A program made the position numbers and the translations under genes. Below, piece by piece: positions 9,588 to 64,000 of a stretch of 64,000 bases of DNA. Position 1 is the stretch's first letter, and each line of letters begins with the position of its first letter. The stretch is from contig DDVC01000073.1 in assembly GCA_002345145.1 (NCBI GenBank), positions 17,809 to 81,808 on the forward strand, read 5' to 3'. The DNA comes from Bacteroidetes bacterium UBA2322 (GTDB lineage: Bacteria; Bacteroidota; Bacteroidia; Chitinophagales; UBA2359). The notes beneath the pieces are model-generated. The model made no database searches. It was not told the DNA's origin and saw only the letters and a program-made list of their open reading frames with translations.

Positions 9588-10103
9588 TTATGCTAAAATA
9601 TGCGATTTTGACCCGCGCCCGTAACCAAACGGATAGGTTTTAGCCTCTGTTTTTGCTTGTTCTACTTTTTGGCTGATTTCGGCGGCAAATAGGTTCAGCT
9701 CTTCTATTACCGCTGCAATAGCTTCATCAGATTGGGTTGATTTACTGCGCAAAACATCATACAACTTGTAATAGGAGGAGTTGTTTTTTTGTGCAGCCTT
9801 ACTAAGCAATGGTTTCATATTGAGCATGTCATGATGCAAAATCAGCAAGGGCGAAATTTCTTTTTTACTCTTGTCTGCATTTGCCGCTTTTTCAAACTTG
9901 GCAGCTAATTTGCCAACCTGTGTGGCAATTTTTGCAAATAGCTTTATCAGCGCTTGTGCTTCTTGCTCCTGAAACCGATGCCTGCCCGATGCCCGGCTGC
10001 GCAAACGCGAATAACCTGCCGGCGTGTAGTATTCATATAACTGTGCCGATACCTTGCTTACCACTACGCAAGGGTGATTTAAAAGATATTGTAAACTTTC
10101 CAT
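9588..10103 (-). CDS. Hypothetical protein, two weakly repeated helical (HTH-like) modules
   Basis: 171-aa ORF co-oriented 18 nt downstream of cas6; the two halves align weakly. Confidence 0.55.
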   Translation of the reverse strand: MESLQYLLNHPCVVVSKVSAQLYEYYTPAGYSRLRSRASGRHRFQEQEAQALIKLFAKIATQVGKLAAKFEKAANADKSKKEISPLLILHHDMLNMKPLLSKAAQKNNSSYYKLYDVLRSKSTQSDEAIAAVIEELNLFAAEISQKVEQAKTEAKTYPFGYGRGSKSHILA

Positions 10104-10121: not shown

Positions 10122-10841
10122 TTAAAAAGTTTCGGGATTGGTGGTTTGTTCATTGGTTTTTCGGTGTTGATTAGGATAAATAGTGCCTAATCCTCGGCTT
10201 GCGCCTTTACCTATGCCAATGTGCGATGGAATAAACAGGTTTGATTTAAATGTTAAATCAAAAGTAGAAACCGGTATGCCCTTATATTTAGCTATTTTAC
10301 TTTCGGTTAAATCGGTAATACTTACATCAAATCGTTTTTCTATTTGCCACCCTACACCCTTGGCAAACCAAAGTAAATGCGAAGCTAATAATTGTTCCAA
10401 AAACTGTATGCGCTGTGCCAGCGAGTCTATGCCCAAATACTCTTTGTAATTATGTTGGTTTAAAGCCTGCCAGCTTTGCACCCTAAACGGCATTGTGCGG
10501 TCTTTTACCTCTAAATGATACTGCTCCATTTTTAGGTGTGCAATTTTAAGCGTTATGGGTTCGCCGTGTAGTTTTATTTCCCAACTTCGTTTTGAAAAAA
10601 GGTGGTATATATTATCTACACCTTCTTGCAAACACAGTACACCGGGCTGCTGCTGCTTAAATACCTTATACTGTATAAGCGGATACCTGTATATAAATTT
10701 GCCATCGGGTTGGTGGTTGTGAAACATATCGTTTTCAAAACCTACTTTTTCGGCTACTGCCGCCCTAAATGCCGGAATTTCTCTCCTTGATATATTGGGT
10801 ACGCTAAATGAAACCGATAAATACCTTAATAAGTGCGACAT
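10122..10841 (-). CDS. cas6: CRISPR-associated endoribonuclease Cas6 (Cas6b type), orphan
   Basis: FHNH...YRYPLIQYK N-terminal motif and C-terminal Gly-rich loop GIGKGASRGLG; start MSHLL (10841). Confidence 0.88.
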   Translation of the reverse strand: MSHLLRYLSVSFSVPNISRREIPAFRAAVAEKVGFENDMFHNHQPDGKFIYRYPLIQYKVFKQQQPGVLCLQEGVDNIYHLFSKRSWEIKLHGEPITLKIAHLKMEQYHLEVKDRTMPFRVQSWQALNQHNYKEYLGIDSLAQRIQFLEQLLASHLLWFAKGVGWQIEKRFDVSITDLTESKIAKYKGIPVSTFDLTFKSNLFIPSHIGIGKGASRGLGTIYPNQHRKTNEQTTNPETF

Positions 10842-10882
10842 GGTTTGGAATGAATAAATAGGGTAATCACCTTTTGTTTCCA

Positions 10883-10890
10883 CAAATGTA
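10883..10890 (-). promoter_or_regulatory. -7 promoter element (TACATTTG) for cas6
   Basis: TAnnTTTG on the minus strand about 40 nt upstream of the cas6 ATG. Confidence 0.5.
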
Positions 10891-11148
10891 AGCAAAGTTT
10901 GTAAAAAAACGCTACCGTCTGTTTATTTCTCTTTAAATTTTACATGGTTGTTCCTTTTAGGGTAATTGATGCGGTTGTGAGGGAGGAGTTTTTTGATGAG
11001 AGTTTAGTTTATATTTTTACTTTTCATTACTAAACACCCGCCAATAAGTAATTACAACCCAAAGCACAATAATAGGGAATACAAACCCTTTCGCATTTTG
11101 GAAATTTTATATTTTTTGGTGCAAAAAACAATAAAAAAATACACAAAC

Positions 11149-11727
11149 TTACTTCTTCAATCTATCCGGATTGTCTGCCAAAAACGATTTCCAGTCTTTT
11201 GCGCCACCGCCCGATTTACCCGAGCTGCTGCTTTTACGGATTACCGAACCCATTTGCAGGTGATGGCAAAAAGCTACGCCAAGTGCATCGGTAGCATCAA
11301 AATACTTGGGCAGCGTATCTAAATGCAGCATACTTTTAAGCATTGCCGAAACCTGCTCCTTTGAACTGCTGCCGTTACCGGTAATAGCTTGTTTTACTTT
11401 TCGGGGCGAGTACTCCGTTACGGGCAGGTTTTTGAGCATAGCGGCGGTAATGGCTACTCCCTGCGCCCTGCCTAATTTGAGCATAGATTGTACGTTGTTG
11501 CCAAAAAAAGGAGCTTCAATAGCCATTTCATCGGGCAGGTAGGTATCAATTATAAAGGTAATTTTCTCAAAAATCCGCTTCAATTTTTGGTAATGCCCCG
11601 CACATTTGTTCAAATGTACTACGCCAAGGCTTAATAATTGTATATTTTTGCCCTCCAGTTCTATAATGGCATAACCAAATACAGTGGTGCCGGGATCGAT
11701 ACCCAAAATTTTAACCGATTTGCTCAA
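11149..11727 (-). CDS. ruvC: Holliday junction resolvase RuvC
   Basis: ILGIDPG, EMAIEAPF, KLGRAQG, EYSPRKVKQAITGNG, DATDALGVA; probable TTG start at 11727. Confidence 0.95.
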   Translation of the reverse strand: MSKSVKILGIDPGTTVFGYAIIELEGKNIQLLSLGVVHLNKCAGHYQKLKRIFEKITFIIDTYLPDEMAIEAPFFGNNVQSMLKLGRAQGVAITAAMLKNLPVTEYSPRKVKQAITGNGSSSKEQVSAMLKSMLHLDTLPKYFDATDALGVAFCHHLQMGSVIRKSSSSGKSGGGAKDWKSFLADNPDRLKK

Positions 11728-11833
11728 AAGTATGGTGTTAAAACGCCCAAAAAATGTGTGTAAAAAGTGATTGGTAAACACATTCAGGAGTGGTGTAGTT
11801 GATTGAGTGTATCTAATTTGTTTGTTTATCTGC

Positions 11834-12850
11834 ATGGACAAGAAAAAAATAGCCTATACGGGGGTTCTTTGGATATTTAAATTGCTTTTTACCGTGGCAA
11901 TAGGCTACTTGCTTTATATGCAAATAAGCGGAAAAACAGCAATAAGCGGATTAACCACCCTATTAAAAACGGTAAACAGCGTTCCTCAATTGCTGTATTT
12001 GCTGGCAGCCGCCTTGCTGGTATGGGTAAACTGGGGTTTAGAGGCTCTTAAATGGCAGCGGTTAATGCACCCCATAGAGCGCATGAGTTGGTTAGAAAGC
12101 CTGCGCAGCGTATTGTGCGGCGTGGCAGTATCTATGCTCACTCCCAACCGAACCGGCGAGTATGGCGGACGCATTTTAACCCTCCAAACATCGGGCAGCT
12201 TAGAAGCCATAGCTATGGCATTGGTAGGCAGTTACGCACAGCTATTAGCCAATATCAGCTTAGGTTTATCGGGCTTTGCCGCCTTTTGTTTTGTTTTTGC
12301 GCCGGTGGCAGCATTTACGTGGCTGCTGCCTGTTATGGGTATTATGGTGGTTTTGGGCGTTTTGGGGTGGTTATATGGCAGGGTAAACCGGCTGCCGGTG
12401 AGTTTAGCCCAAATTTCATGGTTACAAAAATGGCAACACCTAACACGCCCACTTGCAAATGCCAATAAAAGCGCCTTATGGGCAGTGTTGTGCTGGTCTT
12501 TTTTGCGTTATCCGGTATATGTTTTACAATTTTACCTCCTGTTAAAAGGTTTTGGCATACAGCTTAGTCTTACCAATGGCTGGATACTCATCAGCAGCAT
12601 ATTTTTTGTGCAAACTTTTATGCCTACCGTAGCCATAGCCGAGTTAGGCATTAAAGGCAATTTGGCTCTATACTTTATTGGGTTTGCTACATCATTGCAG
12701 GCATCAATATTGGCAGCCGTTTTTGGGCTTTGGTTGCTCAATTTGCTGTTACCCGCACTGGCAGGCTTATTTTTTATAGTAGTATCGGGCAATATGCGCA
12801 GCCTGTTCAGGCAATCGTCAAAATATACCCCCCTTATACCACAGAGCTAA
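11834..12850 (+). CDS. Lysylphosphatidylglycerol synthase TM / flippase-like membrane protein
   Basis: Multi-TM protein; NWGLEALKWQRL, TPNRTGEYGGR, ELGIKG. Confidence 0.75.
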   Translation: MDKKKIAYTGVLWIFKLLFTVAIGYLLYMQISGKTAISGLTTLLKTVNSVPQLLYLLAAALLVWVNWGLEALKWQRLMHPIERMSWLESLRSVLCGVAVSMLTPNRTGEYGGRILTLQTSGSLEAIAMALVGSYAQLLANISLGLSGFAAFCFVFAPVAAFTWLLPVMGIMVVLGVLGWLYGRVNRLPVSLAQISWLQKWQHLTRPLANANKSALWAVLCWSFLRYPVYVLQFYLLLKGFGIQLSLTNGWILISSIFFVQTFMPTVAIAELGIKGNLALYFIGFATSLQASILAAVFGLWLLNLLLPALAGLFFIVVSGNMRSLFRQSSKYTPLIPQS

Positions 12851-45438: not shown

Positions 45439-46209
45439 TTATGTTATGTACTTTTCAAATGGTTTCACAAATCGGGTAACCATATCATCGGCTCTTCTTC
45501 GGGCTTGTGCCACAAAATGAACTAAGTAAGATTTAGCCCAATCTTCCATACTACCTGTGTAATTCTGGTCTAAGTCGGAAACATGAAACTGAATTTGCAT
45601 AGCTGCTGCCCAATTAATGTATAGGTTGGCTGGGTTACATTTAAACAAGTACGCAACGTGAGCATCATTGTATATTAACTTATCGTGGTCAAGTTTCCAG
45701 TCAATTTGAAGATAATTGATGGTGAAACTATCAAATTCCTGATTATCAAACATTTTTGCACAAACCTGCGCTAATTTAAATGCGGATATGATATTAGGCG
45801 GCTGTGCCGATTTTGCTAAATTTCGAGTTTTAATATCTATAATTTCATAAAAATTGCCTTTCACAACCAAAATATCGGCTGTATCATTTTGCTTTTCATC
45901 AAATGGGTTTTCAATACTCCACTTGTCGGTAGCATTTTTGCCCCTACTCAATAAAAATAAAACAGTTGGGGAGTTAAATAATGCCTGCCTTGCCTCGTAA
46001 CCAATTATAGCCGGGTGTTTGCTATATAAATCGTTTAGATATTCATACTGCCTAAAAGTATATTGAGGCAACTGTTTTTTAATTTCCCGATAAACATATT
46101 TATCGAACGGCTCACCTGCCGCATGTCCCGATAAAGTACCCGATATAGGTTTGGGTATAGACGTTCCTTTAATACTGTTAATTAATTCAGTATAATTTAC
46201 TATATTCAT
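45439..46209 (-). CDS. HincII-like type II restriction endonuclease
   Basis: GTLSGHAAGEPF, QNDTADIL, DIKTRN..SAQPPNIISA, LYINWAAAMQIQFHV, all as in HincII; ATGA overlap with the MTase stop. Confidence 0.92.
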   Translation of the reverse strand: MNIVNYTELINSIKGTSIPKPISGTLSGHAAGEPFDKYVYREIKKQLPQYTFRQYEYLNDLYSKHPAIIGYEARQALFNSPTVLFLLSRGKNATDKWSIENPFDEKQNDTADILVVKGNFYEIIDIKTRNLAKSAQPPNIISAFKLAQVCAKMFDNQEFDSFTINYLQIDWKLDHDKLIYNDAHVAYLFKCNPANLYINWAAAMQIQFHVSDLDQNYTGSMEDWAKSYLVHFVAQARRRADDMVTRFVKPFEKYIT

Positions 46210-47804
46210 GGCATATTGAGCAAATGGTTAAATGTTTGATTTATCAGGTTCAGCAGTTCCCTATCTTTGGAGCAGAGGTATTGCCGGGTTAGTTCTGATA
46301 TAGTATCATGTACAGCAACCTCTTTTGGGTTAGCCCAATCTATTGCCCTAAAAGGAATACTGGAAATAGGTTTTTCAGAAAACTCAACGATATTTCCTTT
46401 CACAATTCCATTACATTTTAACCAATCGAAAACAATTGGCAGGTTTAGGTACGACAAAATATATTCTATACTTTCCTTAGTGGTTGGTTTTTTAAAAATT
46501 GCCGTTACATCTTGTGTTGGAAAAAAGCCCTTCTCAACTAAGGCAAACCGGAAATGATTTTTATTGGAAATCCGCTCTTTGCAAGGCACAAAGATTCGCT
46601 TTTCGGGCTTATTAAATAGGTTTAAGTTTCTCAGAAAAACCCACTCCCAATAATTTATTTTCCTGTTATACTGGTATCTTTTTTCTAAATCAGCTTTATA
46701 GGGTTTAAAGTGTTGGTAAAAATGGGGGTATTTTTCTTTAAAAGTTGCTTCGGTTAGTCCTTCTTCTACATAAATATAGGTAGTAGCATTTTCGGCATAA
46801 AAGGGTTTTAGGTCTTTGGCTTTTACCACCTTCATTGTTGCAGCAAGTTCACGGTTGGTTAATACAGCGCCATTTACCTGAAATGCTTTGTCTAAACCAC
46901 TCACCAACCCATTACCAATATCGCAAATATCTCCAATGGTATAAAGCTCTACATTTCCCTCATCAAACAAGGATAGCGGAGCATTTGCATTAAACTTGCT
47001 GCAACTGTTTTCAAAAATCTTTAACCTCTCTTGTACTTCATCGGCATGTAAAATCCACCTTTCGTTTAGTTTAAATTGAGAAACCGATAGGTATTCGACA
47101 TCTTTACATGGCGTTTGATTTTTGAGGGCTGTAAGTGTTTTCTTAGTAAGTTTTTGGTTGGCATAAAATTTTGCAACCTTAATAGAAGGTTTTTTTTCTT
47201 TTGATTTTATGTACTTAAAAACAACAATAGACACTGTTACCTTATCAAAAACAGGGGTTTCATTAAAATGGTATATTTCTTCAAAATAACCATTCTCTAC
47301 CATATAATTCCGAAGTGAAATAGAGTGGGTAGTGTTCATCCAGTATTCGGGACAAACAAAAATGAGCTGCCCATTTTGGTTCAACAACTCAATAGACTTT
47401 AAGATGAAGATGTAGAGATAATCGCAAAGAGAGTTGAAGTATTTATTCCAAATTACACTTTTGGCAAGCTCCTGTTTTAGCTCGGTTTCAAGGTTTTTCC
47501 AACGTATATAAGGCGGATTTCCGATAACAAGGTCAAACTTGTTTTCAATTTTTGCCGAAACAAAACTCTCATACTTCACGCATGAAAATTCGTTCGCCAA
47601 ATGGGGATCTATTTCATAAGCGGTTAAGTTGTTGAAGCCTTTTTGTTGTAATAATTTCAAAAAAATGCCCTCACCGCAAGAAGGCTCTAAAATTGTAGAA
47701 GATGGAAAAATATCAGCCAACTCAATCATAAATTCGGCCACTACTTTAGGGGTAAAGTATTGACCGAATTTATTCTTGGTGTTTTGTTTAACGGAAATTT
47801 CCAT
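46206..47804 (-). CDS. N6-adenine DNA methyltransferase (M.HincII-like)
   Basis: GQYFTP, LEPSCGEG, IGNPPY; cognate partner of the REase. Confidence 0.93.
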   Translation of the reverse strand: MEISVKQNTKNKFGQYFTPKVVAEFMIELADIFPSSTILEPSCGEGIFLKLLQQKGFNNLTAYEIDPHLANEFSCVKYESFVSAKIENKFDLVIGNPPYIRWKNLETELKQELAKSVIWNKYFNSLCDYLYIFILKSIELLNQNGQLIFVCPEYWMNTTHSISLRNYMVENGYFEEIYHFNETPVFDKVTVSIVVFKYIKSKEKKPSIKVAKFYANQKLTKKTLTALKNQTPCKDVEYLSVSQFKLNERWILHADEVQERLKIFENSCSKFNANAPLSLFDEGNVELYTIGDICDIGNGLVSGLDKAFQVNGAVLTNRELAATMKVVKAKDLKPFYAENATTYIYVEEGLTEATFKEKYPHFYQHFKPYKADLEKRYQYNRKINYWEWVFLRNLNLFNKPEKRIFVPCKERISNKNHFRFALVEKGFFPTQDVTAIFKKPTTKESIEYILSYLNLPIVFDWLKCNGIVKGNIVEFSEKPISSIPFRAIDWANPKEVAVHDTISELTRQYLCSKDRELLNLINQTFNHLLNMP

Positions 47805-51272: not shown

Positions 51273-52460
51273 TTACCCTCGCATATACCCATACCCGATG
51301 GCTGTTTTTGCGCCTATGCCGTGCAAAGTAAGGGCAGACTGTAGCCAGTAGGTGGCAAGCTCCAATACTGTACTTTTATTACTGAGCCTGCTGCCCGATG
51401 GCAGGAAAACGCCCATATCGCCCATTTTTTGTAACCCGATAGCCTCTAATGACGGATTATCTCTAACGCCTACAATGGTTTGGAAGTAAAAATCGTTGCC
51501 CGATAAAGATTTATTGCCTACCGTTAAAAACACAATGGGATTGGGGCTTTGTGTATCGGTAGGGGCTTCATTGCCACCGTAGTAATTGGGGTAGTGAACG
51601 TTCATAATATCGGGTTCTATGGCGGGTGCGGCATTGGGGAAACTGTCAAAAAACAGGAGCTGCCCTTCGTGTTGTTCTTTATCGTAGCTCTTATCATCGG
51701 AGCCAAGTAAGTAAACAAACAGCTCATTTTGCAGGGCAATGGTTTCCTGATTATTAAAACAGCAGGCTATAACCCAACTGCGCACTACGCCTTTTATACT
51801 GCTGGCAGGCAGGTAGGGTATGCCATAGATGTGGTGTAGGGTAATGGCGGTTTCATAAACACTTTCTAAGCCTAAGCCCACAATGAGCCTCCAATCGGGC
51901 TGAAACCGCAGGGTGTGGTAGTTGCCGTGTGGGTGCGTAAGGGAGCGGGCACAGCGCTCTTGCCGGGCGGCAAGAGCGGTAAAATCGGTACTGCCGTAAT
52001 TGGGGCGGATTTGATATTCTATCTGTCCTCGGTAGGTGCGGAAAAAATAAAATTCATGCCTGCCTCTTGCCGTATTCCATTCACATCGGGTGGCTTTGTA
52101 GAGTTTCAAGGAAAAATTGTCTATATCGGTAAAACCGTTCAGGTTGCGCAGTATGGGGTGCAGTATTTTGGTTTTATCAAAGCTGTCGGGGTGTTTAAAT
52201 GTATTGCCGCCGGTGGGTTGTTTGGCAGTTTGCCGGGTTAAATCGAGCAGTACCGTACCATTTGTCAGCACAATTTTTTTGACTGCGCCGCCTTCGGAGT
52301 AAAAAGTGCAGGCTGCGCCGTTTAAATCGGCATTGGTAAATATGTACTGCGGCGGAACGTTAATTTGTTTGGTTTTACCGTCTTTTTCATATTGCAAGTA
52401 CCCCACAAACCTGCCTTTTTGTGTGGGCAGTATTACCAATCGGGCATCTGTTTGTTGCAT
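51273..52460 (-). CDS. cmr6: Type III-B CRISPR RAMP Cmr6
   Basis: RLIVGLG, LHHIYGIPYLPASSIKG, FFDSFP, DIMNVHY, GIGAKTAIGYG. Confidence 0.95.
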   Translation of the reverse strand: MQQTDARLVILPTQKGRFVGYLQYEKDGKTKQINVPPQYIFTNADLNGAACTFYSEGGAVKKIVLTNGTVLLDLTRQTAKQPTGGNTFKHPDSFDKTKILHPILRNLNGFTDIDNFSLKLYKATRCEWNTARGRHEFYFFRTYRGQIEYQIRPNYGSTDFTALAARQERCARSLTHPHGNYHTLRFQPDWRLIVGLGLESVYETAITLHHIYGIPYLPASSIKGVVRSWVIACCFNNQETIALQNELFVYLLGSDDKSYDKEQHEGQLLFFDSFPNAAPAIEPDIMNVHYPNYYGGNEAPTDTQSPNPIVFLTVGNKSLSGNDFYFQTIVGVRDNPSLEAIGLQKMGDMGVFLPSGSRLSNKSTVLELATYWLQSALTLHGIGAKTAIGYGYMRG

Positions 52461-52471
52461 AAGGTTGAGAT

Positions 52472-52855
52472 TTAAGCGGTGATTGCTTCAGCAAAGCGGC
52501 GGTACCAGTTTAAAAAAGCAAGCACTTCATTAGTAATGGCGCGGTAAACGGCGGGGTCTTCCAAATTGATGAGGTAATCTATAAAGCCGGTATCGGTATT
52601 GGTGGTTACCTTAGTGTGAATATCGGGAGCTACTTTCTTAATATCGTCTTTCAGCCATTTTATTATATCGGCATAAATGGTGTTGTATGCCTGCCTGTTT
52701 TTTGATTTTATGAAAGCCAATGCCGGCGCTAAGCCATGACTTTTAATCATCATGGGCACTTTTTTGGCGTAAGATTTAAACTCGTCGGTTTTTGGTGCCT
52801 CTTGCACGTATTTTAATGCTTTGGCGGCTCTGCCTTGTTCTACTTTACTACGCAT
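52472..52855 (-). CDS. cmr5: Type III-B small subunit Cmr5 (Cas11)
   Basis: EQGRA..A, FKSYAKKVPMMIKSHGL, YRAITNEVLAFLNWYRRFA. Confidence 0.92.
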   Translation of the reverse strand: MRSKVEQGRAAKALKYVQEAPKTDEFKSYAKKVPMMIKSHGLAPALAFIKSKNRQAYNTIYADIIKWLKDDIKKVAPDIHTKVTTNTDTGFIDYLINLEDPAVYRAITNEVLAFLNWYRRFAEAITA

Positions 52856-52877
52856 GGTATAGTGATTTTTGGATGGG

Positions 52878-53972
52878 TTAGAGTAAATGGGTTCTTAGTA
52901 CGCCTTTACCCAATGTGGTATTAGCGCCCAATTGAAAAACGTGGTTGAGTTGTTTGGCAAGGGTATCGGTTACAAACTCCTGCACTTCATTTGCGCTGAG
53001 GGTGGCTTTTTTACCGCGCTCATCGGTAAACATGGCAAGGCTGTATAAGATGCTCTCGGTAGGGAGGTATTCTTCGGTAAACAATGCGCCGGTGGCTACG
53101 GTACCGGTTTGGTTGTCTATTTTGGTACGGGTTACTACTTCGGTGCTGAGTTTTACAAAGTCTCTAAAATCGTCGTCGGACAGAATGACGAGGCGGTTTT
53201 TGAGCAGTAATTGCCAGTAGTTTTGTTCGGGTTGGGTAAATAGCATTTTGGCTAATGCACCGGCAAATTTATAGGCAAGGTCTTCGGTATCGGTTTTTAC
53301 CTCAAAAGCGTATTCCTCCAATACTATCGTTTTGTCGTTTATACCTATTTCGTTGGCATTGCTTGCCCTACATGCCTGCTGCCCAATGGCTAATTTAGGT
53401 ACTAAGGCGCTAAGGGTTTGTTTGAGTTCGTTATTAATGTTTGCAATTTTGAGTTCGTGTTCTAATTTTGCCAATACCGATTTGCAGGTTATCCACACAA
53501 AAACGCCTTTCATGCTCTTAACCGGAAACAGCAGCAAGCGCGCATCGGTAAGGGCAAGGCAGCCGGCAAATTCGTGTCCGTCTTTTGCCTTGTCATCACC
53601 GTCTTCTTTGTATTCTTTGTATTTGAAAAGTTTTTTCAGCCTGTTGGCGGTAGCTTTTTTCATACTGCCGTCGTCAAACCCAAAAACCCGATGCACTTTT
53701 ACATCGTTGGCTTCCCAAGAAGCAAAGGCTTTTGCTTTATTTTCATGCTCTTCTTCGGGTAATGCTTCATCGGTTCTTACGTTTTTAAACGTTTCGTAGG
53801 CGTGTTCAAAGGCTTCGCGCAGGGCGCCTTTTAGCGAGGAGCTTTCAATTTTGGGGAAATCGGTATGCCGCTCGCGCTGGATAGGGAGGTCAACAAACCC
53901 TAAGTCATCGCCGGTGCCGGCGTGCAGGGGTGTTTCGCAAATAAGAAACAGGGGGCGTGTAATTTGGTACAT
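52878..53972 (-). CDS. cmr4: Type III-B RAMP Cmr4 (intact, catalytic D28)
   Basis: [52 protein letters not shown]. Confidence 0.96.
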   Translation of the reverse strand: MYQITRPLFLICETPLHAGTGDDLGFVDLPIQRERHTDFPKIESSSLKGALREAFEHAYETFKNVRTDEALPEEEHENKAKAFASWEANDVKVHRVFGFDDGSMKKATANRLKKLFKYKEYKEDGDDKAKDGHEFAGCLALTDARLLLFPVKSMKGVFVWITCKSVLAKLEHELKIANINNELKQTLSALVPKLAIGQQACRASNANEIGINDKTIVLEEYAFEVKTDTEDLAYKFAGALAKMLFTQPEQNYWQLLLKNRLVILSDDDFRDFVKLSTEVVTRTKIDNQTGTVATGALFTEEYLPTESILYSLAMFTDERGKKATLSANEVQEFVTDTLAKQLNHVFQLGANTTLGKGVLRTHLL

Positions 53973-53995
53973 AGTGTATGTAGATTTTACGGTTT
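53849..53995. repeat. 147-bp direct repeat, copy 1 (cmr4 5' end plus 23 nt upstream)
   Basis: Aligns to 54916-55062 with 6 mismatches and no gaps. Confidence 0.97.
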
Positions 53996-54053
53996 AACTA
54001 AAATGAAGAGATTGAAACTAAAGAGTGGTTTATATAGGATTGCATAGTGGTGT

Positions 54054-54651
54054 TTATTCTTGTTTTTGAGGTGGGTTAATACTCTCGTAAATTGGTAAAG
54101 CCCATTCGTTAATAGGCGCATAAGTTTTTTGAAGTAACCCATTACTTGCTCTGAAAAGTAGTGTTGCATCTGCATACTCAATGGAATTATCATACACATA
54201 TAATCTATCCACAAAAGAGGAAGCAAGGCAACAGTTAACAATAGATTTAGAAAAGCGACTAACAATTTTGGTTATTGGCACATCATGCCCACCCTCCATA
54301 ACTCTATGGGCAATACGGCTTGCATTAATAGATGGGTGATTAGTACCAACAAAAAATAAACGTATAAAAAAACCTGCTTCTTTTGCTCGGAGCATATACT
54401 CAACTTTATCAATTGCTGATAGCACAGTTTCAAAAATAAGGCTTTGTTTCAGTAAAAGACATTCTTCCCTTTGTTGTGCAGCAAGATTAGCCGCTTTTAG
54501 TACTGCCTCCGGAGAATTCCAATCGCCAAATTGCTCTTGCGCTATATTATCGGGATTTATATAAATACAGCCTTGTATCCATTCGTGTTTCAGGATTTGG
54601 GTGGTTATAGACGTTTTTCCCGAACCATTTGGACCTGCAATAACCAACAAC

Positions 54652-54671
<20 letters not shown>
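54054..54671 (-). CDS. Zeta-toxin-like P-loop kinase/ATPase
   Basis: IAGPNGSGKTS, YINPDNIA, FETVLS, RIAHRVMEGGHDVP, YVYDNS. Confidence 0.85.
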
Positions 54672-55111
<440 letters not shown>

Positions 55112-55125
55112 TTAATTTAAAAGCA

Positions 55126-55731
55126 TTAAATTATGTTTTTGTATTCGTTTATAATGGTTTGTAAAGCGCCTAAAACCATGTCTAATTGATTGATGAAATA
55201 CTTTTGTGTATCTATGGTAAAAGCGGAGTCTTCAAATTTAAGAAACATCCATTCATCGGCAGTGGTAACGCAGCCATACACAAAGGGAACCGGCTGGTTA
55301 TGCTTTTGGTTAAACAACCATGCACCATACATTTGTGCGGCGCATTGGTCAATACCCAATTCAAAGTCATTTTTTTTAGCTTCTATGAGGGTAAAAATTG
55401 GATAGCTGATGGTAAATGACTGGGTGTTTTTGGCTAAAATAAAATCACATTCTCCGGTTAGTCCGGCGTTTTTGTCTGCTTCAAGCATATCGCCGGAGTA
55501 GATGGTGAAAAAATCATCATTTTGCTGTTTGAGTTCTAATAAAACAGGAGCTACAATCATTTCTGATTTTGCTTTTTCGCTTTTAATAGGATTTTTTCTG
55601 CTCATGGCAAGCGTATCTTTTAGCCAGTTGCTGTATGGCAGTGGCGCTACATGGGTAAAAAGGGGTTTATAGTAGGCTGCTAAGCCAAATTGCTCTTTTA
55701 GGCGCAGCAGGGTAAATTGTTTGTAAGACAT
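55126..55731 (-). CDS. PD-(D/E)xK-fold protein, HsdR-N-like family
   Basis: E..I.P.L, GECDFIL, IEAKK, QCAAQM, YGCVTT..W.FL. Confidence 0.65.
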   Translation of the reverse strand: MSYKQFTLLRLKEQFGLAAYYKPLFTHVAPLPYSNWLKDTLAMSRKNPIKSEKAKSEMIVAPVLLELKQQNDDFFTIYSGDMLEADKNAGLTGECDFILAKNTQSFTISYPIFTLIEAKKNDFELGIDQCAAQMYGAWLFNQKHNQPVPFVYGCVTTADEWMFLKFEDSAFTIDTQKYFINQLDMVLGALQTIINEYKNII

Positions 55732-55747
55732 GGGATTAAACTGAGTT

Positions 55748-57211
55748 TTATCGGGTTAAACGCTCCCAAGTGAAATCATTCCATTGTATAGTTTCGAAAT
55801 CAAATTGTTTTACTCTATCCGGGGTTATTTGCCAGTTTACATTATGTTTGTAATTATCGGGCGGTTGTACCCATAGCCAAACTAAATGTGAACAGGCAGA
55901 AATGTTAATTTGTTTCAATTCTTTAAATGCTGCCTCTTGGAATCGGTTAGGTTGGCGGTGGTGGTACATTGCCACAATACATTTTATTGCCCTTTGCCGC
56001 TCGTTGGCGTATGCCAGCGATGCTTGAAAAGCGCCTTGCCTGCATTTTCTCTCAATAGTATCACCATTTCCAAGTATTTTTACCTTCTCAGGCTTTACTT
56101 CTATGGATAGAATAAATTGGTCATTTTCTACCCACACATCGGCATCGTAAGCATCTCCTTGGGGTGATATACCAATTGGTTTTTCCAATATTGTTTTATC
56201 GGGAAATTTATTGGCAAAGAACTGAAATACTTTTAGCTCCATTACCTTGCCTACTAAATTGCCTATATCAATATCGTTGCTTCGGATGTTATTGTGGTAG
56301 GCAGCAAACAATAATTTACCTAATGCAGATAGGCTTATGCGCTTGGTATTTTCGCTGCCCGTTTCAATTTCAATGATTAAACCAGAATTGTCAATACTCC
56401 CAAAATCTGCTTGTTCTGCTAAATTATCTTTGAATACCTCGGGTGTAGGGAGGTTGTATAATGCCTTCTCGGGTTTAAGTAATTCAAATGCTAAGTAGTT
56501 ATCCTCAAAAATACTATAATCAAACGCCACCGGCAGTTTTTCTAAGCCTATAATTTGTCCTTCTTTGTTATCTTGGTGGGTGTAGCGGAGGGGGTAGTCG
56601 TAAATTTGCCCCATAATGGTGAGGATAGGAATGGTGGCTTTATAACCGCCCGATATGTTTAGTAGGGGTTTATCGGTACCGGCTATGGCGTTTATGGCGG
56701 TAAGCAGGTTAGAGAAGCCGGTGGTTTGGAATTTTTGAGGGTCTTTTACCTGTAAATCGGGTATGGGCAATATAAACGCATCGGGATATGCCGATTGATA
56801 TATGCTGCGTTGTTGCCAAATTGTGCCTAATTCGCCGGTATTGACCGCAGCGGCTATTTGTATTCGTTTGGCGGTTTCATCGCCGTCTTCTTTCTTAAAA
56901 TTGAGCCATGCTATAATGAGTTCGCAGGCTATAACGGCGGTAACGGTATCGGTGGCAAGGAGGTACACTTGCAGCGTTTCGGCAGGTTTTTCTTTGGCTA
57001 TTTCATAAAGGGTGTGAATTTCGGCACATACTTCTTGGTCGGTTTTGGGAAAAAGTTGGTTGCTTTGATTGTCTTGATTGCGAAATCTTTCAATTTCTGG
57101 CTGAATGCGCTCATTATCCCAATCAGACAGCAATGCATCTTTGCTGTTTGGAAACTGACCTTGATAATTTTGTGTTAAGATGGAAATGCCTACTGTGGTA
57201 ATCACTTTCAT
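55748..57211 (-). CDS. CARF (APE2256-type) fused to a PD-(D/E)xK nuclease; putative cOA effector
   Basis: TTVGIS, CAEI, ATDT, LQVKDPQKF, NISGGYK; C-terminal E...DAD...EVK. Confidence 0.8.
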   Translation of the reverse strand: MKVITTVGISILTQNYQGQFPNSKDALLSDWDNERIQPEIERFRNQDNQSNQLFPKTDQEVCAEIHTLYEIAKEKPAETLQVYLLATDTVTAVIACELIIAWLNFKKEDGDETAKRIQIAAAVNTGELGTIWQQRSIYQSAYPDAFILPIPDLQVKDPQKFQTTGFSNLLTAINAIAGTDKPLLNISGGYKATIPILTIMGQIYDYPLRYTHQDNKEGQIIGLEKLPVAFDYSIFEDNYLAFELLKPEKALYNLPTPEVFKDNLAEQADFGSIDNSGLIIEIETGSENTKRISLSALGKLLFAAYHNNIRSNDIDIGNLVGKVMELKVFQFFANKFPDKTILEKPIGISPQGDAYDADVWVENDQFILSIEVKPEKVKILGNGDTIERKCRQGAFQASLAYANERQRAIKCIVAMYHHRQPNRFQEAAFKELKQINISACSHLVWLWVQPPDNYKHNVNWQITPDRVKQFDFETIQWNDFTWERLTR

Positions 57212-57224
57212 AACTGCCCGATGT

Positions 57225-58301
57225 TTAAATTTTACCCACCATTGCCAAGCCGTAACCCTCGTTTGGCAGGTAGTCTGATATGGTTTTACAATGCAATAAC
57301 TCCTTTACCGCTTCAATAGTTCCGGCTACCAAGCGGAAGTAATAAACCGACCCGGCAGGCACTGTGCGGCACATGGTTTTGGGTTGTTGCTCTTTAAGGT
57401 CAAAACCACCTATGGGCAGGGGTTTACCCAGCGCTGTGCCGGTGAGTTGCAAGGTTATTTTGCGGTCGCCGTTTCCTATTTCGCCAATGTAGTCATTTTC
57501 GGGTTTAATCCATGCGGGCAGCCAGCCTTGTGCAAAAATGGCGGGTGTAGCAAGGTAGAGTTTAAACAGGGTATCGGTTGGGGCAAGCGTAAAGGGTATT
57601 TGTGCGCTTACTGTTTTGTTGGGTTCTACGCTGAAATGGGCTAATTTGCTATCGGCGCCCAGTTTGGCAATGCTAAGCCATTTGTGAGGAAAATCGGGCA
57701 GTTCTACTACAATTTGGGTTTTATTACTGAGGCGCTTCATATCCACCCGATAGAGTTTACCCTCATCGGTGGCAAAGGTGAGGTTATCTCTGCCAATGCC
57801 AATTTTAGGTTCCGAAACAAAGTACTTAGCGTTGGGCGATATTTTTGCTACATCGGTGGCTTTTAAATAGTCTTCAAGGTCAAACAGGGTAATGATGCCT
57901 TTGCTTTTTTCATTGTCCACCACAAAATCGGGGTAGGTTATTTGGGTAAGCGGTTTATTGCTCACTATGCCGGCTGCGGCAGCGTTGCGAGGCTGGAGTA
58001 TGGTTTTCTGGGGATTGTTTTCCGTTTTTTCTATTGCAAAGTCATTGGGGGCGGTTACACAATAACCGCTTTCTGTTTGAAGGTATATGCCCGATATGGT
58101 GATGTGTTTGGTTGCTTCTTCCAAAGCCAATTTATCGGCAGTGGCAAAATTGGTATTGCCCAAAAACAGGGTGCGGATAGCGCCGTAAATAACGGAGGGC
58201 GAAGGCGGAAAAAGGCTGTCTGCCCACGAGTCGTCGCCCATAGAAAAGGGTTTGCCATCGCGAAAAAAGAGGGTATCAAAAGGGTTAATTTTAATAAGCA
58301 T
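57225..58301 (-). CDS. cmr3: Type III-B RAMP Cmr3 (Cas5 group)
   Basis: PFDTLFFRDGKPF, PPSPSVIYGAIR, KIGIGR, LYLATP, IGGFD, VPAGSVY, EGYG. Confidence 0.95.
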   Translation of the reverse strand: MLIKINPFDTLFFRDGKPFSMGDDSWADSLFPPSPSVIYGAIRTLFLGNTNFATADKLALEEATKHITISGIYLQTESGYCVTAPNDFAIEKTENNPQKTILQPRNAAAAGIVSNKPLTQITYPDFVVDNEKSKGIITLFDLEDYLKATDVAKISPNAKYFVSEPKIGIGRDNLTFATDEGKLYRVDMKRLSNKTQIVVELPDFPHKWLSIAKLGADSKLAHFSVEPNKTVSAQIPFTLAPTDTLFKLYLATPAIFAQGWLPAWIKPENDYIGEIGNGDRKITLQLTGTALGKPLPIGGFDLKEQQPKTMCRTVPAGSVYYFRLVAGTIEAVKELLHCKTISDYLPNEGYGLAMVGKI

Positions 58302-60141
58302 GGGCGGCAGTTTTTTCGGGTTGATTGGTTTGGCGTTTGATGTAGTTGGCTATGTTGAGGGCTTCTAAGAAAAATTCCAAAGTTTGGGCGTTGGTTAAAA
58401 GTTTATTGAGTGCGTTAAACATGGCATCAAAATCGGCATTTTTGAGGTCGGATTTTTTAGAACGTTCTAATAGGCGTTGCATTTCTAATCGGATAAAATT
58501 GGAATTTTCAATTTGGTTAATAAAATCTTTCACTTCTATAAACAGCGCCAGCTCCCGATTTAAAGACCGGATAAAAGTATCGGAAAAGTTATCTTGCTGC
58601 AATTGCTGTGTTATGGTTTGCAGGTGGGGTAGTTGTTCCCATTTAAAGCAGGTTTGGTGCGTTTCGCCCGATTTTTTGAGTACGCCTATGGCAAAAGCGT
58701 TTCTATCGCCATCTTCTTTGGCTTTGTCTTGCAGGCGGCGGGCTTCGTTGAGGGCAATACCCATAGGCGAGCCGTAATGGGCAATGGCAATGCCGGCAGA
58801 AAAGGTAAAGTTGAAACCGGGTTTGAGTACATCGGTAAAGGTTTGTTGGAGTGGGCTGTTTACGGTGCGGTGAAACTCGCCCTGCACCTGTAAAAGTACG
58901 TCGTACAGGTGATTGAGGTTGATGAGGGCAAGGCAATCATCGCCGCCGGCATAAATAACTCTACCCTTGGGGAAGGTGATGATTTTTTCTACCGATTTGG
59001 CAAATTGGGTAAGCAATCGGGAGGTTTCCTTTTGAAAATTGTGGAGGTATTGGTTGCACTTATCGGGTTTAAGGAAGTTGCCGGTCATGATTTTACCCAT
59101 GCTATCGCCGTCAAAGGTTAAAACGGCATAGTATTTTTTTAGCCTGCTTGCGGGCAGTTTCTGCACATGCTGGCGCACACAGCTTAGCGCTCCTTCGGGC
59201 AATCCTTGTTGTTCAAAAAACTTGGGGGTGAGGTTTTCTTCGTAAAAAACTTGCCCGTTAATTTCATCGGCAAAACGCAAAAGATTGTTGTTCACCTCTG
59301 CTTTTTCTCCAAGACACAGTCCAATAGGTTGTAAGTGAGATATAAACTTACCGGTATCATCGCACCAGTTAAACAAATCGTACAAAGCTATATTGGCAGT
59401 GGATGGGAATATCAGATTTTTATGCTTATACCAGCGTTTAAGGAAGGAAACAGTGCTAAGCCCTTCGCCGGCTTGGAGGAGTTTGTGGGTGCGGTCGTCG
59501 TTGTCTTTGGGTTGGTTATCCCAGAGACAAACTTGGTTGGGTTGGGTAAACAGTTTTTTATCCAGCAGTCGGGCGGTATCGGTTTCATCTTTGGTTTTCC
59601 GATATACTTTTACATTTCGCTCGCCGTCTAAGTTGCATTTTCGCCCTTTTTCGGGCAGTTGGGTAAAGGTGCGTATGTTTTTAAGTCCGCCAAAAATTCT
59701 TTCGGCGGTTTGGTAGTTGTGGGCGTAAGTTTCGGGCGTATAGGGTTTAAAGAACCAGGTAATTTCTAAATGGCTGTTGATTTGGTCAAAGTAGGCTTTT
59801 TGGTCAAAATTGGGCGGGGCTTGCATGAATTTGAGGGCATCATGGGCAAGGTTGGTAAAGAGGTTGCGCACGGCATTTTCTATGGTTTGCCCTATGGTGG
59901 CAAGGTCTTCATTTCCGTTATAGATACCGGCAAATTGGTTGGGTATGTTTTGCCCGTTGTTGTTGTCGGTTTGTTGGGGGTAAGTGATGTCTATACCTTG
60001 CGCTTTGGCGGCTTGAATGGCTTTGTCTGCCAACGCCGATAATAAACGACTGCCTCCAAAAAGGTCTTGGGCTTTTCGGGCTTGGGCTATAAAGGTTTGT
60101 ACCGGACCTACCGAGAATATGAAAATGTGGTTAGAACTCAT
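58291..60141 (-). CDS. cas10: Type III-B Cas10/Cmr2, HD-less, intact Palm cyclase
   Basis: SVGPVQTFIAQARK.QDL..GS.LLS, IPNQF, FDGDSMG, YAGGDD, FSAGIAIAH; start MSSNH (60141). Confidence 0.96.
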   Translation of the reverse strand: MSSNHIFIFSVGPVQTFIAQARKAQDLFGGSRLLSALADKAIQAAKAQGIDITYPQQTDNNNGQNIPNQFAGIYNGNEDLATIGQTIENAVRNLFTNLAHDALKFMQAPPNFDQKAYFDQINSHLEITWFFKPYTPETYAHNYQTAERIFGGLKNIRTFTQLPEKGRKCNLDGERNVKVYRKTKDETDTARLLDKKLFTQPNQVCLWDNQPKDNDDRTHKLLQAGEGLSTVSFLKRWYKHKNLIFPSTANIALYDLFNWCDDTGKFISHLQPIGLCLGEKAEVNNNLLRFADEINGQVFYEENLTPKFFEQQGLPEGALSCVRQHVQKLPASRLKKYYAVLTFDGDSMGKIMTGNFLKPDKCNQYLHNFQKETSRLLTQFAKSVEKIITFPKGRVIYAGGDDCLALINLNHLYDVLLQVQGEFHRTVNSPLQQTFTDVLKPGFNFTFSAGIAIAHYGSPMGIALNEARRLQDKAKEDGDRNAFAIGVLKKSGETHQTCFKWEQLPHLQTITQQLQQDNFSDTFIRSLNRELALFIEVKDFINQIENSNFIRLEMQRLLERSKKSDLKNADFDAMFNALNKLLTNAQTLEFFLEALNIANYIKRQTNQPEKTAAHAY

Positions 60142-60202
60142 ATTAGCTAATGATTTCTTGTATTTATTGATGTAAGGTTGATATTGAAATAAATATAACC
60201 GT

Positions 60203-60838
60203 TCAAATGAGGTTTTTGATGTTTTGTAAGATGGTAAAAACAAGGGCGAGTTTGTCAAACTCGGTTACGTTGTAGTTGGTGGTATTTTGGTATTGTTTAC
60301 CCTGCAAAGCTACAAAATACCAGTCTTTACCTACTATATAACAACCATACAATACCCTGTTTTTGTTGGTATTGAGGTGTTGTGCGGTAATCATGGCAGC
60401 CAGCAGTTGCCCAAGCGGGTCGGCATCGGTGCCTTGTTCTTTTTTGTACTCATGTAAAAAGAAGAAAGGCTCGCGCGGTATTTGTTTACCCGATGCCAGC
60501 ATCCACTCCACCACGCCCGAAAGTTCTATTTCGGGGGTTTGGAGTTGCATGATGCGCTGCGAAAAAGGTTGGTACCTATCGCTTTCATAATAATCTACCA
60601 AAAATAGAAAGGGCGAAATAAACTGCATTTTCAATTCATCTTCGTTCCAGTCTAAGAATTTGCGGCTAATGAGTTTGTGTAGTTTTTCCAACTCTTCTTG
60701 TACCGATGCGGGTACATGGGGTTGTACTTGGGTTAAGGTTTGCAAGGGTGTAAAATAAGGCTGTGCGGTTTCCAATCTTTCTAAGCCAAACCAAATGGTG
60801 AGGTCTTCCCAAAGGCATTTTTCAAAGGTTTTTTTCAT
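60203..60838 (-). CDS. PD-(D/E)xK-fold protein, HsdR-N-like family (second, divergent)
   Basis: WNEDELKMQFISP, LSGVVEW, HEYKK, GQLLAAM..AQ.LN, YGCYIVGKDWYF. Confidence 0.6.
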   Translation of the reverse strand: MKKTFEKCLWEDLTIWFGLERLETAQPYFTPLQTLTQVQPHVPASVQEELEKLHKLISRKFLDWNEDELKMQFISPFLFLVDYYESDRYQPFSQRIMQLQTPEIELSGVVEWMLASGKQIPREPFFFLHEYKKEQGTDADPLGQLLAAMITAQHLNTNKNRVLYGCYIVGKDWYFVALQGKQYQNTTNYNVTEFDKLALVFTILQNIKNLI

Positions 60839-60877: not shown

Positions 60878-61222
60878 TTATTGCGAGTTGGGGGTTGTTA
60901 TATTTTTATCGGGATAAAGCCATTTTACCTGCGCAAGTTTGTCTTTAAACATTTGCATAATAGCTTCTTCCCAATCGTTGGTAGTGGGCAGGTAGGGAAT
61001 AATGGCTTTTAGCATTTCTTTTCGGTATTCGTTGGCGCGGAGGCGGTCTATGTTTATTTGCGGAAGGTAAGTTTTCACCTCTTCAAAATCGTAGTTAATT
61101 AAATCCGGAAAACTGGCATACTCAATCAGCCGCTTCAGCCTAAAAGTGGGCGAAAGCGTATCGGGGTCAATGCCTGTGGAGGCTCCGGTATCCCAAAAGT
61201 ATTTAAGAAATCGTTTTTGCAT
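60878..61222 (-). CDS. Small protein, DUF6922-like
   Basis: KYFWD...D...RL.EY...D pattern; overlaps the HNH stop by 20 nt. Confidence 0.45.
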   Translation of the reverse strand: MQKRFLKYFWDTGASTGIDPDTLSPTFRLKRLIEYASFPDLINYDFEEVKTYLPQINIDRLRANEYRKEMLKAIIPYLPTTNDWEEAIMQMFKDKLAQVKWLYPDKNITTPNSQ

Positions 61223-62003
61223 GGTGGAGGATGAATTTTAAAAAGAAAATAACTATATTGCAAAATGGTTCAAATTTCAACTCACTATCCTCATCATCGC
61301 GGTGCAACTGCATGTAGTGGTCTAAATATAATTTGGCTTCATCTCTATCCAAATCTATTATGCCTGTTTCTGTGATGCCCGGAAATGCCTCTTCCAGAAC
61401 AAGCGCTCTTGATTTTATCAATTGTTGATGATTTAAGCGCAATTGTTTTATGGTAAATGCTGCGTTTTGATTGCCATTTGATTCAAATATATTCCCTGAA
61501 AAATCATAAACAAATGATTTTTCACATGTAAATACCTCTTCACTTTCCTTTTCAAGTGGGTCAATAATTCTGACAAATATTCCGTTTTCCTCAATTATTT
61601 CTAATATATCATCTTTTGCATCACCGCAATGCTTCGGTTTTATTTGCTCTCCGTCATCACCCACCTCTATTCCGCTACAACAAACAAATAAGTTATTGTA
61701 ATCAAACATATTTTCGGGGGATTTGCTTCTAGGGTTATAATGCTCAATAATAACACTTTTATCATTTGTTAGTGGTTTGCAACAATAACAACATATAAAG
61801 CCCTGTTCTTGTAGCAGCGCTAAACGCAAATTCTTTTTCTCAAAGCAATACCCAAACTCATTTATGATGCGAGTTCTGGTATCTTCATCGTTAATGTCTC
61901 TTAACCTATTCCATGAGTAAGAGGTAGTGCCGGTAAGTTTTTCATAGTCCGCTACCCAGCGGATAAAATTGGGTGGTGGTTGGTTTTTGATTATTCCTTT
62001 CAT
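61203..62003 (-). CDS. HNH endonuclease, PtuB/retron-associated (TIGR02646-like)
   Basis: LLQEQGFICCYC, IEHYNP, YNNLFVCC, HCGDAK. Confidence 0.85.
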   Translation of the reverse strand: MKGIIKNQPPPNFIRWVADYEKLTGTTSYSWNRLRDINDEDTRTRIINEFGYCFEKKNLRLALLQEQGFICCYCCKPLTNDKSVIIEHYNPRSKSPENMFDYNNLFVCCSGIEVGDDGEQIKPKHCGDAKDDILEIIEENGIFVRIIDPLEKESEEVFTCEKSFVYDFSGNIFESNGNQNAAFTIKQLRLNHQQLIKSRALVLEEAFPGITETGIIDLDRDEAKLYLDHYMQLHRDDEDSELKFEPFCNIVIFFLKFILHHAKTIS

Positions 62004-62006
62004 CTT

Positions 62007-63680
62007 TTACCTTCCAATTAGCTGTTTGCGCTTAATAAGCCCATCGGCACGTGCAAAAACGATTTCTTCTTTGCCTATTTTCCTTTCTAATACTTCTCTC
62101 AGTAGTGCAGCCTCTTTCCACCGCTCTTGTGCAATTAATCTGGAATAAGTAAGAAGATTTGTTTCTATTTCTTTGTTTCGTGTTGGTGTATTCATTAGTG
62201 GTAAAATATCACTAATGTCTTTGCCGTAGGTATATTGTTCAACTGTTTTTATAACACCAGCATCAAGTATTTTTATCTGCCTATTATGTACTTCTCCTAA
62301 AATGTGTGGACTATGCGTAGTTACCACAAACTGTAATTTCGGGAAGATTTCTTTTAATTTAGATAATACTTTTCGCTGCCATAGTGGGTGCAGGTGTTGG
62401 TCTATTTCGTCAATCAATACAATGCCCTTACCCTCTTTGAGTGGGTTAATTTCATAATTAGGATTAGCTGCAATAATACGGCGAACAAGGTCGGCAACTA
62501 AGGCAAAAAGGGCTTTTTCGCCCGATGACATCTGAGAGAAGGAGATGGTTTCCGTTTTGTTGTCGTAGGTCAGTTTGTCAAAGGCAAACTCTTTTGATTT
62601 GTAATCAAGCCTAAAATTGCTGTAGCGTTTGTCGTCGTCATTCAGCATGTCAAGCACGGCATTGTTTAACAGGTCAAGTTCTTCATCTAAAGATTTTCCT
62701 TGTACCACTAAATCAAGTTTATTTTTGTGGGTTTCTTGTTCTGTTTTTACATTTTCGAATGTAGCAGAACTTTCTACAAAGGCGGCTTCGGCATTTTGTA
62801 TTCTCTGCTTCAGTGTTTTTAACTCGTTAGTTAGGTCTTTAAATTCTACAGTGCCGGTTTGTTTGTTTTTTCTGAGTTGCGCTATTTTATCCGTTACTAT
62901 TTCTTCATCAAGCTTTAGCGCTGTTACCTCACCTTCTTGTTTGGCTTTTTGGGCTCCTATGTTTTTTAGTTCCTGTTCCAATGCTGCTATATCGTCTTGA
63001 AACTTTTTTATTTTTGTATCTTTTTCTTGCAAGGCTAATCTTTGTTTTTCATCGTACCATTGGTAAAGTTGGTTAAAACTAAATCTTTCGGGTTCTAAGG
63101 CATTGGCATAAACAGCATCTATTCGGGATTTTACCTTTGCATTGCCGGCTGCTTGTGGTCTATTAAAAGCATTTCTGCCGTAATACACCAAGATAGGTAG
63201 GTTTTCTTTCTTTCTGAGAACATTGGTTGCTATTCTATATCCTTCTATGGTAATGCTATCGGCAATGTTGCCTTGCGCATATTTAACTTCTGTTCCACCA
63301 TTGTCATTAAGGTTTAACTCCCAAAAACAATTTGCATTGTGAATTGGTCTATCATCTTCCTCCTCGACTTCATCGGTATTGTTAGTTTTGGATTTATTCA
63401 ATTCGGTATATGGATACTCCATATTTACCACAAGCCGGCAAGATGCCGCATGTAGCCCATTTTTAACATCGGTTGATTTGAATTTAGTTTCATATTTTTG
63501 CCTAACGAGGGCATATTGGTAAAAAAAGCGCAAACACTCGGCAGTAGCATCTAATATGGTAGATTTTCCGCCGCCGTTTTCCGAAATAAAGATGGTGATA
63601 TCGGGGTCAAACGTTACTTCCAAATTGCCAAATCCTCTGAAGTTTTCTAAGTGCAGCGCTTCTAATCTGAGGTCGAACAT
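62007..63680 (-). CDS. ABC/AAA ATPase, PtuA-like, with coiled-coil insertion
   Basis: LENFRGF, SENGGGKST, MSSGEK, VLIDEIDQHLHPLWQ, TTHSPH. Confidence 0.88.
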   Translation of the reverse strand: MFDLRLEALHLENFRGFGNLEVTFDPDITIFISENGGGKSTILDATAECLRFFYQYALVRQKYETKFKSTDVKNGLHAASCRLVVNMEYPYTELNKSKTNNTDEVEEEDDRPIHNANCFWELNLNDNGGTEVKYAQGNIADSITIEGYRIATNVLRKKENLPILVYYGRNAFNRPQAAGNAKVKSRIDAVYANALEPERFSFNQLYQWYDEKQRLALQEKDTKIKKFQDDIAALEQELKNIGAQKAKQEGEVTALKLDEEIVTDKIAQLRKNKQTGTVEFKDLTNELKTLKQRIQNAEAAFVESSATFENVKTEQETHKNKLDLVVQGKSLDEELDLLNNAVLDMLNDDDKRYSNFRLDYKSKEFAFDKLTYDNKTETISFSQMSSGEKALFALVADLVRRIIAANPNYEINPLKEGKGIVLIDEIDQHLHPLWQRKVLSKLKEIFPKLQFVVTTHSPHILGEVHNRQIKILDAGVIKTVEQYTYGKDISDILPLMNTPTRNKEIETNLLTYSRLIAQERWKEAALLREVLERKIGKEEIVFARADGLIKRKQLIGR

Positions 63681-63685
63681 GGTGT

Positions 63686-64000
63686 TTAATTTAAAACATT
63701 ATTCCTAAAATCCTCTTGCAAGGAGAGGCTGATTTTATTGCGGTCTCTATCGGGTATGGTGTTGAGGGTGGCGGTGATGATGCGGTTTTGGTTGCCCACT
63801 TGGGTAAGCGAGGCAATTACCGGCGAGGCAAACCGCCCTCTGTTGGCATGACCAAGGCTGGGTTCATAAGTTGAGCCATTTTTCTGTTTCAGTTGGTGGG
63901 TAACCCTGCCTATTTTTTTGGTCAAAACTTCCCAATTGGTATTACCCGTTTGGCTTAGGTGCAGCAAGCGCAAATAAGGGTAACTTGCCGTGCCGCCGCT
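63686..64000 (-). CDS. cmr1: Probable Cmr1 C-terminus (5' part outside window)
   Basis: Open to the window edge; LGHANRGRFASPV motif; position upstream of cmr2 in the same operon. Confidence 0.7.
   Translation of the reverse strand, partial: SGGTASYPYLRLLHLSQTGNTNWEVLTKKIGRVTHQLKQKNGSTYEPSLGHANRGRFASPVIASLTQVGNQNRIITATLNTIPDRDRNKISLSLQEDFRNNVLN

Follow-up and report, generated by a model that had tools for sequence, protein, structure and literature searches.

The cas6b gene of the window (the whole 64-kb stretch of DNA that was analysed) and the gene that follows it, p171, probably form a 5' module that has become detached from a Bacteroidota type III-B (Cmr) system, for which the Cas6b protein would process crRNA in trans. 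This reading was built on what could be observed of the protein family, the conservation of catalytic residues, the order of the genes and their distribution among genomes. A preliminary description of the same DNA had presented the gene as an orphan, and part of that label stands, since no array lies nearby and the gene is detached from the Cmr genes; its relatives, however, head type III operons. Because its downstream neighbour p171 is a III-B-linked gene, cas6b is not fully isolated, and gene order argues that it is not a true orphan. The features of the region are as follows.

10122..10841, minus strand: cas6b of a type-III-linked Bacteroidota clade, 239 aa, with Pfam, PDB 4z7k and PADLOC matches
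9588..10103, minus strand: p171, encoding a 171-aa helical protein, 18 nt downstream of cas6b
10883..10890, minus strand: TACATTTG, a TAnnTTTG match and putative promoter motif of the Bacteroidota -7 type, 42 nt 5' of the cas6b ATG
11149-11841, minus strand: ruvC, upstream of cas6b

The open reading frame was found on the minus strand at 10122-10895 of the window. All orthologues open with an MSHLLRYL-like sequence, so that the true start is the ATG at 10841 (239 aa) and not the TTG at 10895. The protein contains Cas6b_N (PF17955; 1.1e-25, 90.2 bits) and Cas6b_C (PF17262; 2.3e-29, 102.3 bits) in that order, both above the Pfam gathering cut-offs of 25 and 39.4 bits, respectively. PADLOC recognised it as Cas6 (7e-45) and Cas6b (7e-42), and the Methanococcus maripaludis Cas6b (MmCas6b; 4z7k) could be aligned over the full length (3e-20). 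Counted from the ATG at 10841, the H-x-H motif noted earlier corresponds to H41-N-H43, which falls on H38/H40 of MmCas6b; together with the retained Y51/Y53, it aligns to VHNHR...YKYP of 4z7k. In MmCas6b, H38 and H40 are catalytic, and the H38A/H40A double mutant is inactive (PMC3479195). In an alignment of 27 Cas6b sequences H43 is invariant and H41 at least 90% conserved, and the window protein retains all the invariant columns, including G211, G217 and G219 of the C-terminal Gly-rich loop (GIGKGASRGLG, residues 209-219), which had rightly been described as intact. The likeness to MmCas6b (4z7k/4z7l) thus extends to the two-domain fold family, the catalytic pair, an equivalent of Tyr47 and the C-terminal Gly-rich loop. 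On these grounds the window gene is judged to be an intact Cas6b, a member of the CRISPR-RNA-cutting family. Under a strict definition of the subtype, a I-B Cas6b belongs to a cas8b-cas7-cas5-cas3 operon; the window copy does not lie in one.

The gene lies beside ruvC, as had been noted, and its remaining neighbours are housekeeping genes, both in this genome (G000) and in the closed genome G001 of the same genus. No CRISPR array or other set of spaced repeats was detected on the whole 104-kb contig of the window. The TAnnTTTG element proposed earlier was located at the position given above; we take this sequence to be the Bacteroidota -7 promoter motif. Its occurrence alone is weak evidence, because 119 copies were counted in the 64 kb for 91 expected. 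In the cas6b orthologues of G001 and G002, TAnnTTTG followed by TGG is found 48-51 nt 5' of the ATG, and the upstream genes differ; since the position of the motif is kept despite unrelated upstream genes, it is plausible that cas6b has its own promoter. The gap of 18 nt suggests that p171 is probably co-transcribed with cas6b.

The Cmr genes of the window (51273-60258, minus strand) are located 40 kb from cas6b. Their order is cmr6, cmr5, cmr4, three associated genes, cmr3 and cmr2, after which come a further PD-(D/E)xK gene, the PtuB/PtuA pair and cmr1.

51273..52460, minus strand: cmr6 (RAMP), 39% identity to the cmr6 of G001
52472..52855, minus strand: cmr5, Pfam Cas_Cmr5 4.7e-28
52878..53972, minus strand: cmr4 (RAMP)
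54054-54701, minus strand: zeta-toxin-like P-loop protein
55126-55731, minus strand: PD-(D/E)xK protein, cas-associated
55748..57211, minus strand: CARF-domain effector, CARF7-RelE-like, Pfam Cas_APE2256, PADLOC CARF7--CARF_RelE 1e-42
57225..58301, minus strand: cmr3, Pfam Cas_Cmr3 3.7e-47
58291..60258, minus strand: cmr2/cas10, GGDD intact at residue 438, no HD domain
60203-60838, minus strand: second PD-(D/E)xK protein, cas-associated
61203-62003, minus strand: Septu-like PtuB, HNH nuclease, PADLOC 1.5e-39
62007-63680, minus strand: Septu-like PtuA, ATPase, PADLOC 4e-91
63686..64000, minus strand: 3' part of cmr1, the gene continuing past the window to contig C49:82381; RAMP 1.1e-16 (L015:2495-3382)

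The true start of cmr2 is probably an internal ATG (MSSNHIF...). The Cmr operons of two other loci, L096 and L120, carry the same PtuA/PtuB insertion between cmr1 and cmr2, so that in this III-B lineage the pair is conserved, as a passenger or an accessory. The preliminary description had reported an operon without cas6 about 40 kb away and had named a cas6 upstream of cmr1 as a finding that would speak against a role in trans; that position is occupied by a lipase gene, and no cas6 was found there.

Relatives of the window protein were sought in 185,579 species genomes; this gave 80 loci whose Cas6b shares 35-47% identity with it, almost all of them from Bacteroidota. A type III crRNA-processing component is expected to have homologues inside type III effector operons, and in 50 of these 80 loci (39 Csm and 11 Cmr) cas6b adjoins type III genes, mostly heading the operon; at least one locus scored as solo (L067) also has Cas10 immediately downstream of cas6b. 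MmCas6b differs in this respect, being encoded in a type I-B operon, whereas the clade of the window protein heads type III Csm/Cmr operons. In a maximum-likelihood tree the window Cas6b groups with the orthologues from its genus in a clade (SH-aLRT 100) nested among type-III-linked Cas6b proteins, and the Cas6b of a type I-B operon of this same genome is a long-branched distant outgroup; the deeper nodes of this tree are poorly supported. The arrays beside clade members (L075/G017, L090, L083 and L140) have repeats ending in GGATTGCGAC or near variants. The locus L096, from a Phaeodactylibacter MAG, has the order cas6b-cmr1-PtuA-PtuB-cmr2-cmr3-CARF-cmr4-cmr5-cmr6, which is the Cmr gene order of the window, PtuA/PtuB insertion included, with cas6b attached.

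The downstream gene points to the same type of system. Four other genomes of the genus were searched; three of them (G001, G002 and G004) have an intact cas6b orthologue with 65-69% identity, and in each of these a p171 orthologue follows cas6b. In none of them is ruvC adjacent, and since p171 follows cas6b there too, the two genes are interpreted as a conserved two-gene module of variable location. In the locus L123, from Bacteroidetes J049, p171 lies directly between cas6b and cmr1 (cas6b-p171-cmr1-cmr2), and in L120 cas6b is followed by p171 about 2.6 kb upstream of cmr1; the homology of these two p171 proteins was confirmed by hhalign (4e-44 and 2e-52). Thus, the cas6b of L096 and the cas6b-p171 pair directly before cmr1 in L123 are attached to the operon, unlike in this genus, where cas6b-p171 is separated from cmr1 by about 53 kb (G000) or about 0.83 Mb (G001).

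The p171 family is represented by 29 clusters among 1.84 billion representatives, with lengths of 127-199 aa except for one weak match to a 1079-aa protein. A profile search did not find it outside its own genus in 400 sampled Bacteroidota genomes, and a degenerate motif scan of metagenome contigs recovered one true p171, located beside cas6b, and eight chance matches. Profile searches of Pfam, NCBIfam, PHROGs and PDB gave no match, PADLOC nothing better than an E-value of 0.002, and the ESM Atlas no useful lead. The AlphaFold model (pLDDT 92, pTM 0.86) is all-helical with two long helices; Foldseek found nothing specific for it (best E-value 0.45), and a wide VIA-align search gave a best Z of 6.3, to generic helical bundles. 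Two motifs are conserved, an Arg-rich RLRSRxxGRHRF and a C-terminal GRGxxSH. It is tentatively suggested, at somewhat less than even likelihood, that p171 is the founder of a rare CRISPR-associated family that works with type-III-linked Cas6b and stays with cas6b outside the effector operon. Possible roles of the protein are those of a cofactor that binds RNA or of a factor that passes crRNA from Cas6b to Cmr; if it is involved in crRNA maturation or loading, type III-B systems would have an accessory component not described before.

The preliminary description had also raised the alternative of a non-CRISPR RNA substrate. According to this explanation Cas6b would have been recruited to another task, such as the processing of a host transcript, and the placement of cas6b among housekeeping genes in G000 and G001, apart from every array and cas operon, could be read in that way. 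The partner p171, however, occurs inside III-B operons, the window protein falls in the tree among Cas6b proteins linked to arrays and effectors, and the assembled genome contains no repeat-like site elsewhere: the full repeat of its only assembled array, described below, had no stray match with up to nine mismatches allowed, and the 10-nt 3' end of that repeat had only two matches, both unrelated. Nothing emerged in support of such a substrate, and the explanation is considered very improbable.

The strongest single piece of evidence for Cas6b acting in trans on crRNA for Cmr is the closed genome G001. Its single Cas6b gene, at 4.834 Mb, is the orthologue accompanied by p171, and since no PF01881 Cas6 was found in this genome, the window type is the only Cas6 detected. 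The genome has one cmr1-6 operon, at 3.99 Mb and without cas6, a single cas1 at 2.77 Mb and an array of 170 repeats (G001:C1:3950006-3962600) whose flanks are free of cas genes for 18-20 kb in both directions. The distances of this array are about 29 kb to the Cmr operon, 0.87 Mb to cas6b-p171 and 1.2 Mb to the only cas1. A common repeat 3' end, of the ATTGCGAC type, is found in the G001 array, in the array of G000 (contig C175) and in the arrays of G004; the G001 repeat also matches the arrays beside the clade members L075/G017, L090, L083 and L140. In G000 as well as in G001, a stand-alone cas6b is therefore accompanied by a type III operon that lacks cas6 and by a compatible array, and processing in trans for Cmr, as put forward in the preliminary description, is consistent with all the comparative evidence, from the homologues in type III operons to G001.

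The genome of the window offers more than one candidate for this task. Its assembly, with a completeness of 99.7%, consists of 254 contigs of about 2.6 kb or more. The genome-wide look for arrays and other cas6 genes that had been called for brought to light one array and two further Cas6 genes, a I-B Cas6b on contig C137, which shares only 29% identity with the window protein, and, on contig C198, a classical Cas6 that heads a I-D operon.

Contig C137, L003:12563-19997: complete-looking type I-B operon, cas8b-cas7-cas5-cas3-cas6b-cas1, cut by the contig end
Contig C198, L014:9240-19652: type I-D locus with a divergent WYL regulator, cas6, cas10d, csc2, csc1, cas3, cas4, cas1 and cas2

The only assembled array stands at the start of contig C175, where nine copies of a 37-nt repeat ending in GGATTGCGAC are cut by the contig end; this contig carries no cas genes. 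The repeat RNA forms no stable hairpin, a property shared with the 37-nt substrate repeat of MmCas6b. A search for overlaps between contig ends that might link the C175 array with the I-B or the I-D locus found none. The cas1 of contig C137 is cut by the contig end just past the GLDPY motif, where the resemblance to Cas1 stops, a break that may reflect an insertion or a repeat; the I-D locus stops at a contig break in the expected leader, with no array assembled for it.

Most simply, the C175 array is the native type III array of the genus, and the enzyme native to its processing is the stand-alone Cas6b. This array could also be a substrate of the I-B enzyme, because the repeats of I-B-linked arrays from other genera have a similar, though not identical, end (GGATTGAAAC). 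This similarity, together with the fact that the I-B and I-D Cas6 genes both lie within complete-looking operons, leads to another explanation, that the window cas6b is a redundant leftover, dispensable or decaying, and that the Cas6b of C137 or the Cas6 of C198 carries out all the processing. Several observations argue against this: all invariant Cas6b residues are kept in the window copy, the orthologues in three other genomes of the genus are intact, the I-B type of Cas6b was not found in the four other genomes of the genus, and in G001 the sole Cas6 is of the window type and stands alongside the 170-repeat array. We consider redundancy unlikely, with a probability well under that of a native processing role.

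A further proposal takes the coexistence of the two enzymes as its starting point. The Cas6-2 of Thermus thermophilus HB27 has been reported to compete with the I-B Cas6 for crRNA or Cas5 (PMC12102369), and by analogy the type-III-linked Cas6b might also modulate the co-resident I-B system by competing with its Cas6b for the same partners. As in that precedent, a I-B Cas6 and a type-III-linked Cas6 are found in one genome with similar repeat families. The analogy is, however, the sole basis of the proposal, and the I-B locus, present only in this one genome of the genus, cannot explain the genus-wide conservation of the gene; such modulation seems improbable, if slightly less so than redundancy.

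For the preferred reading, a detached III-B module acting in trans, we infer cleavage, the cut position, the delivery to Cmr and any role of p171 from the comparisons above, and the following sequence of events can be proposed. The cas6b and p171 genes would probably be transcribed together from their own promoter, and Cas6b would bind the largely unstructured 37-nt repeats of the ATTGCGAC-type array on contig C175. The H41/H43 pair is predicted to cleave every repeat at a distance of 8 nt from the 3' end, as Cas6 enzymes do as a rule (PMC3479195), and the predicted crRNAs would carry the 8-nt 5' tag AUUGCGAC. The tagged crRNAs would then be passed to the Cmr1-6 complex, whose operon lies at a distance of 40 kb and lacks its own cas6, and the Cas10 cyclase of this complex would signal to the CARF effector.

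A stand-alone Cas6 that serves type III systems is an already established and ordinary arrangement, an example being TtCas6A (TTHA0078) of Thermus thermophilus HB8, which likewise stands alone in a genome where a second Cas6 is embedded in a type I operon. The two enzymes differ in that TtCas6A belongs to a different Cas6 subfamily, has hairpin-forming repeats and has no conserved p171-like partner described; moreover, the activity of TtCas6A has been demonstrated, whereas that of the window Cas6b is predicted. The linkage of p171 to cas6b is thus the sole new, non-routine element of the finding. The cas6b-p171 pair would explain how crRNA is supplied to a Cmr operon that lacks cas6, and the III-B system of this Sphingobacteriales genus is dispersed over the chromosome, where effector operon, array, cas1 and cas6b-p171 each have a location of their own. 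A system of this kind should therefore not be annotated as incomplete.

Some minor observations were also made. The window encodes a type II restriction-modification pair (45439-47804, minus strand), formed by a HincII-type endonuclease (Pfam 4e-138) and an Eco57I/N6 DNA methylase. In the same assembly, long tandem arrays are found at ends of contigs C41, C161, C88, C138 and C162, with units of 21-22 nt, and of C81, with a 7-nt unit; these arrays are non-CRISPR, and such contig ends are a recurrent cause of assembly breaks.
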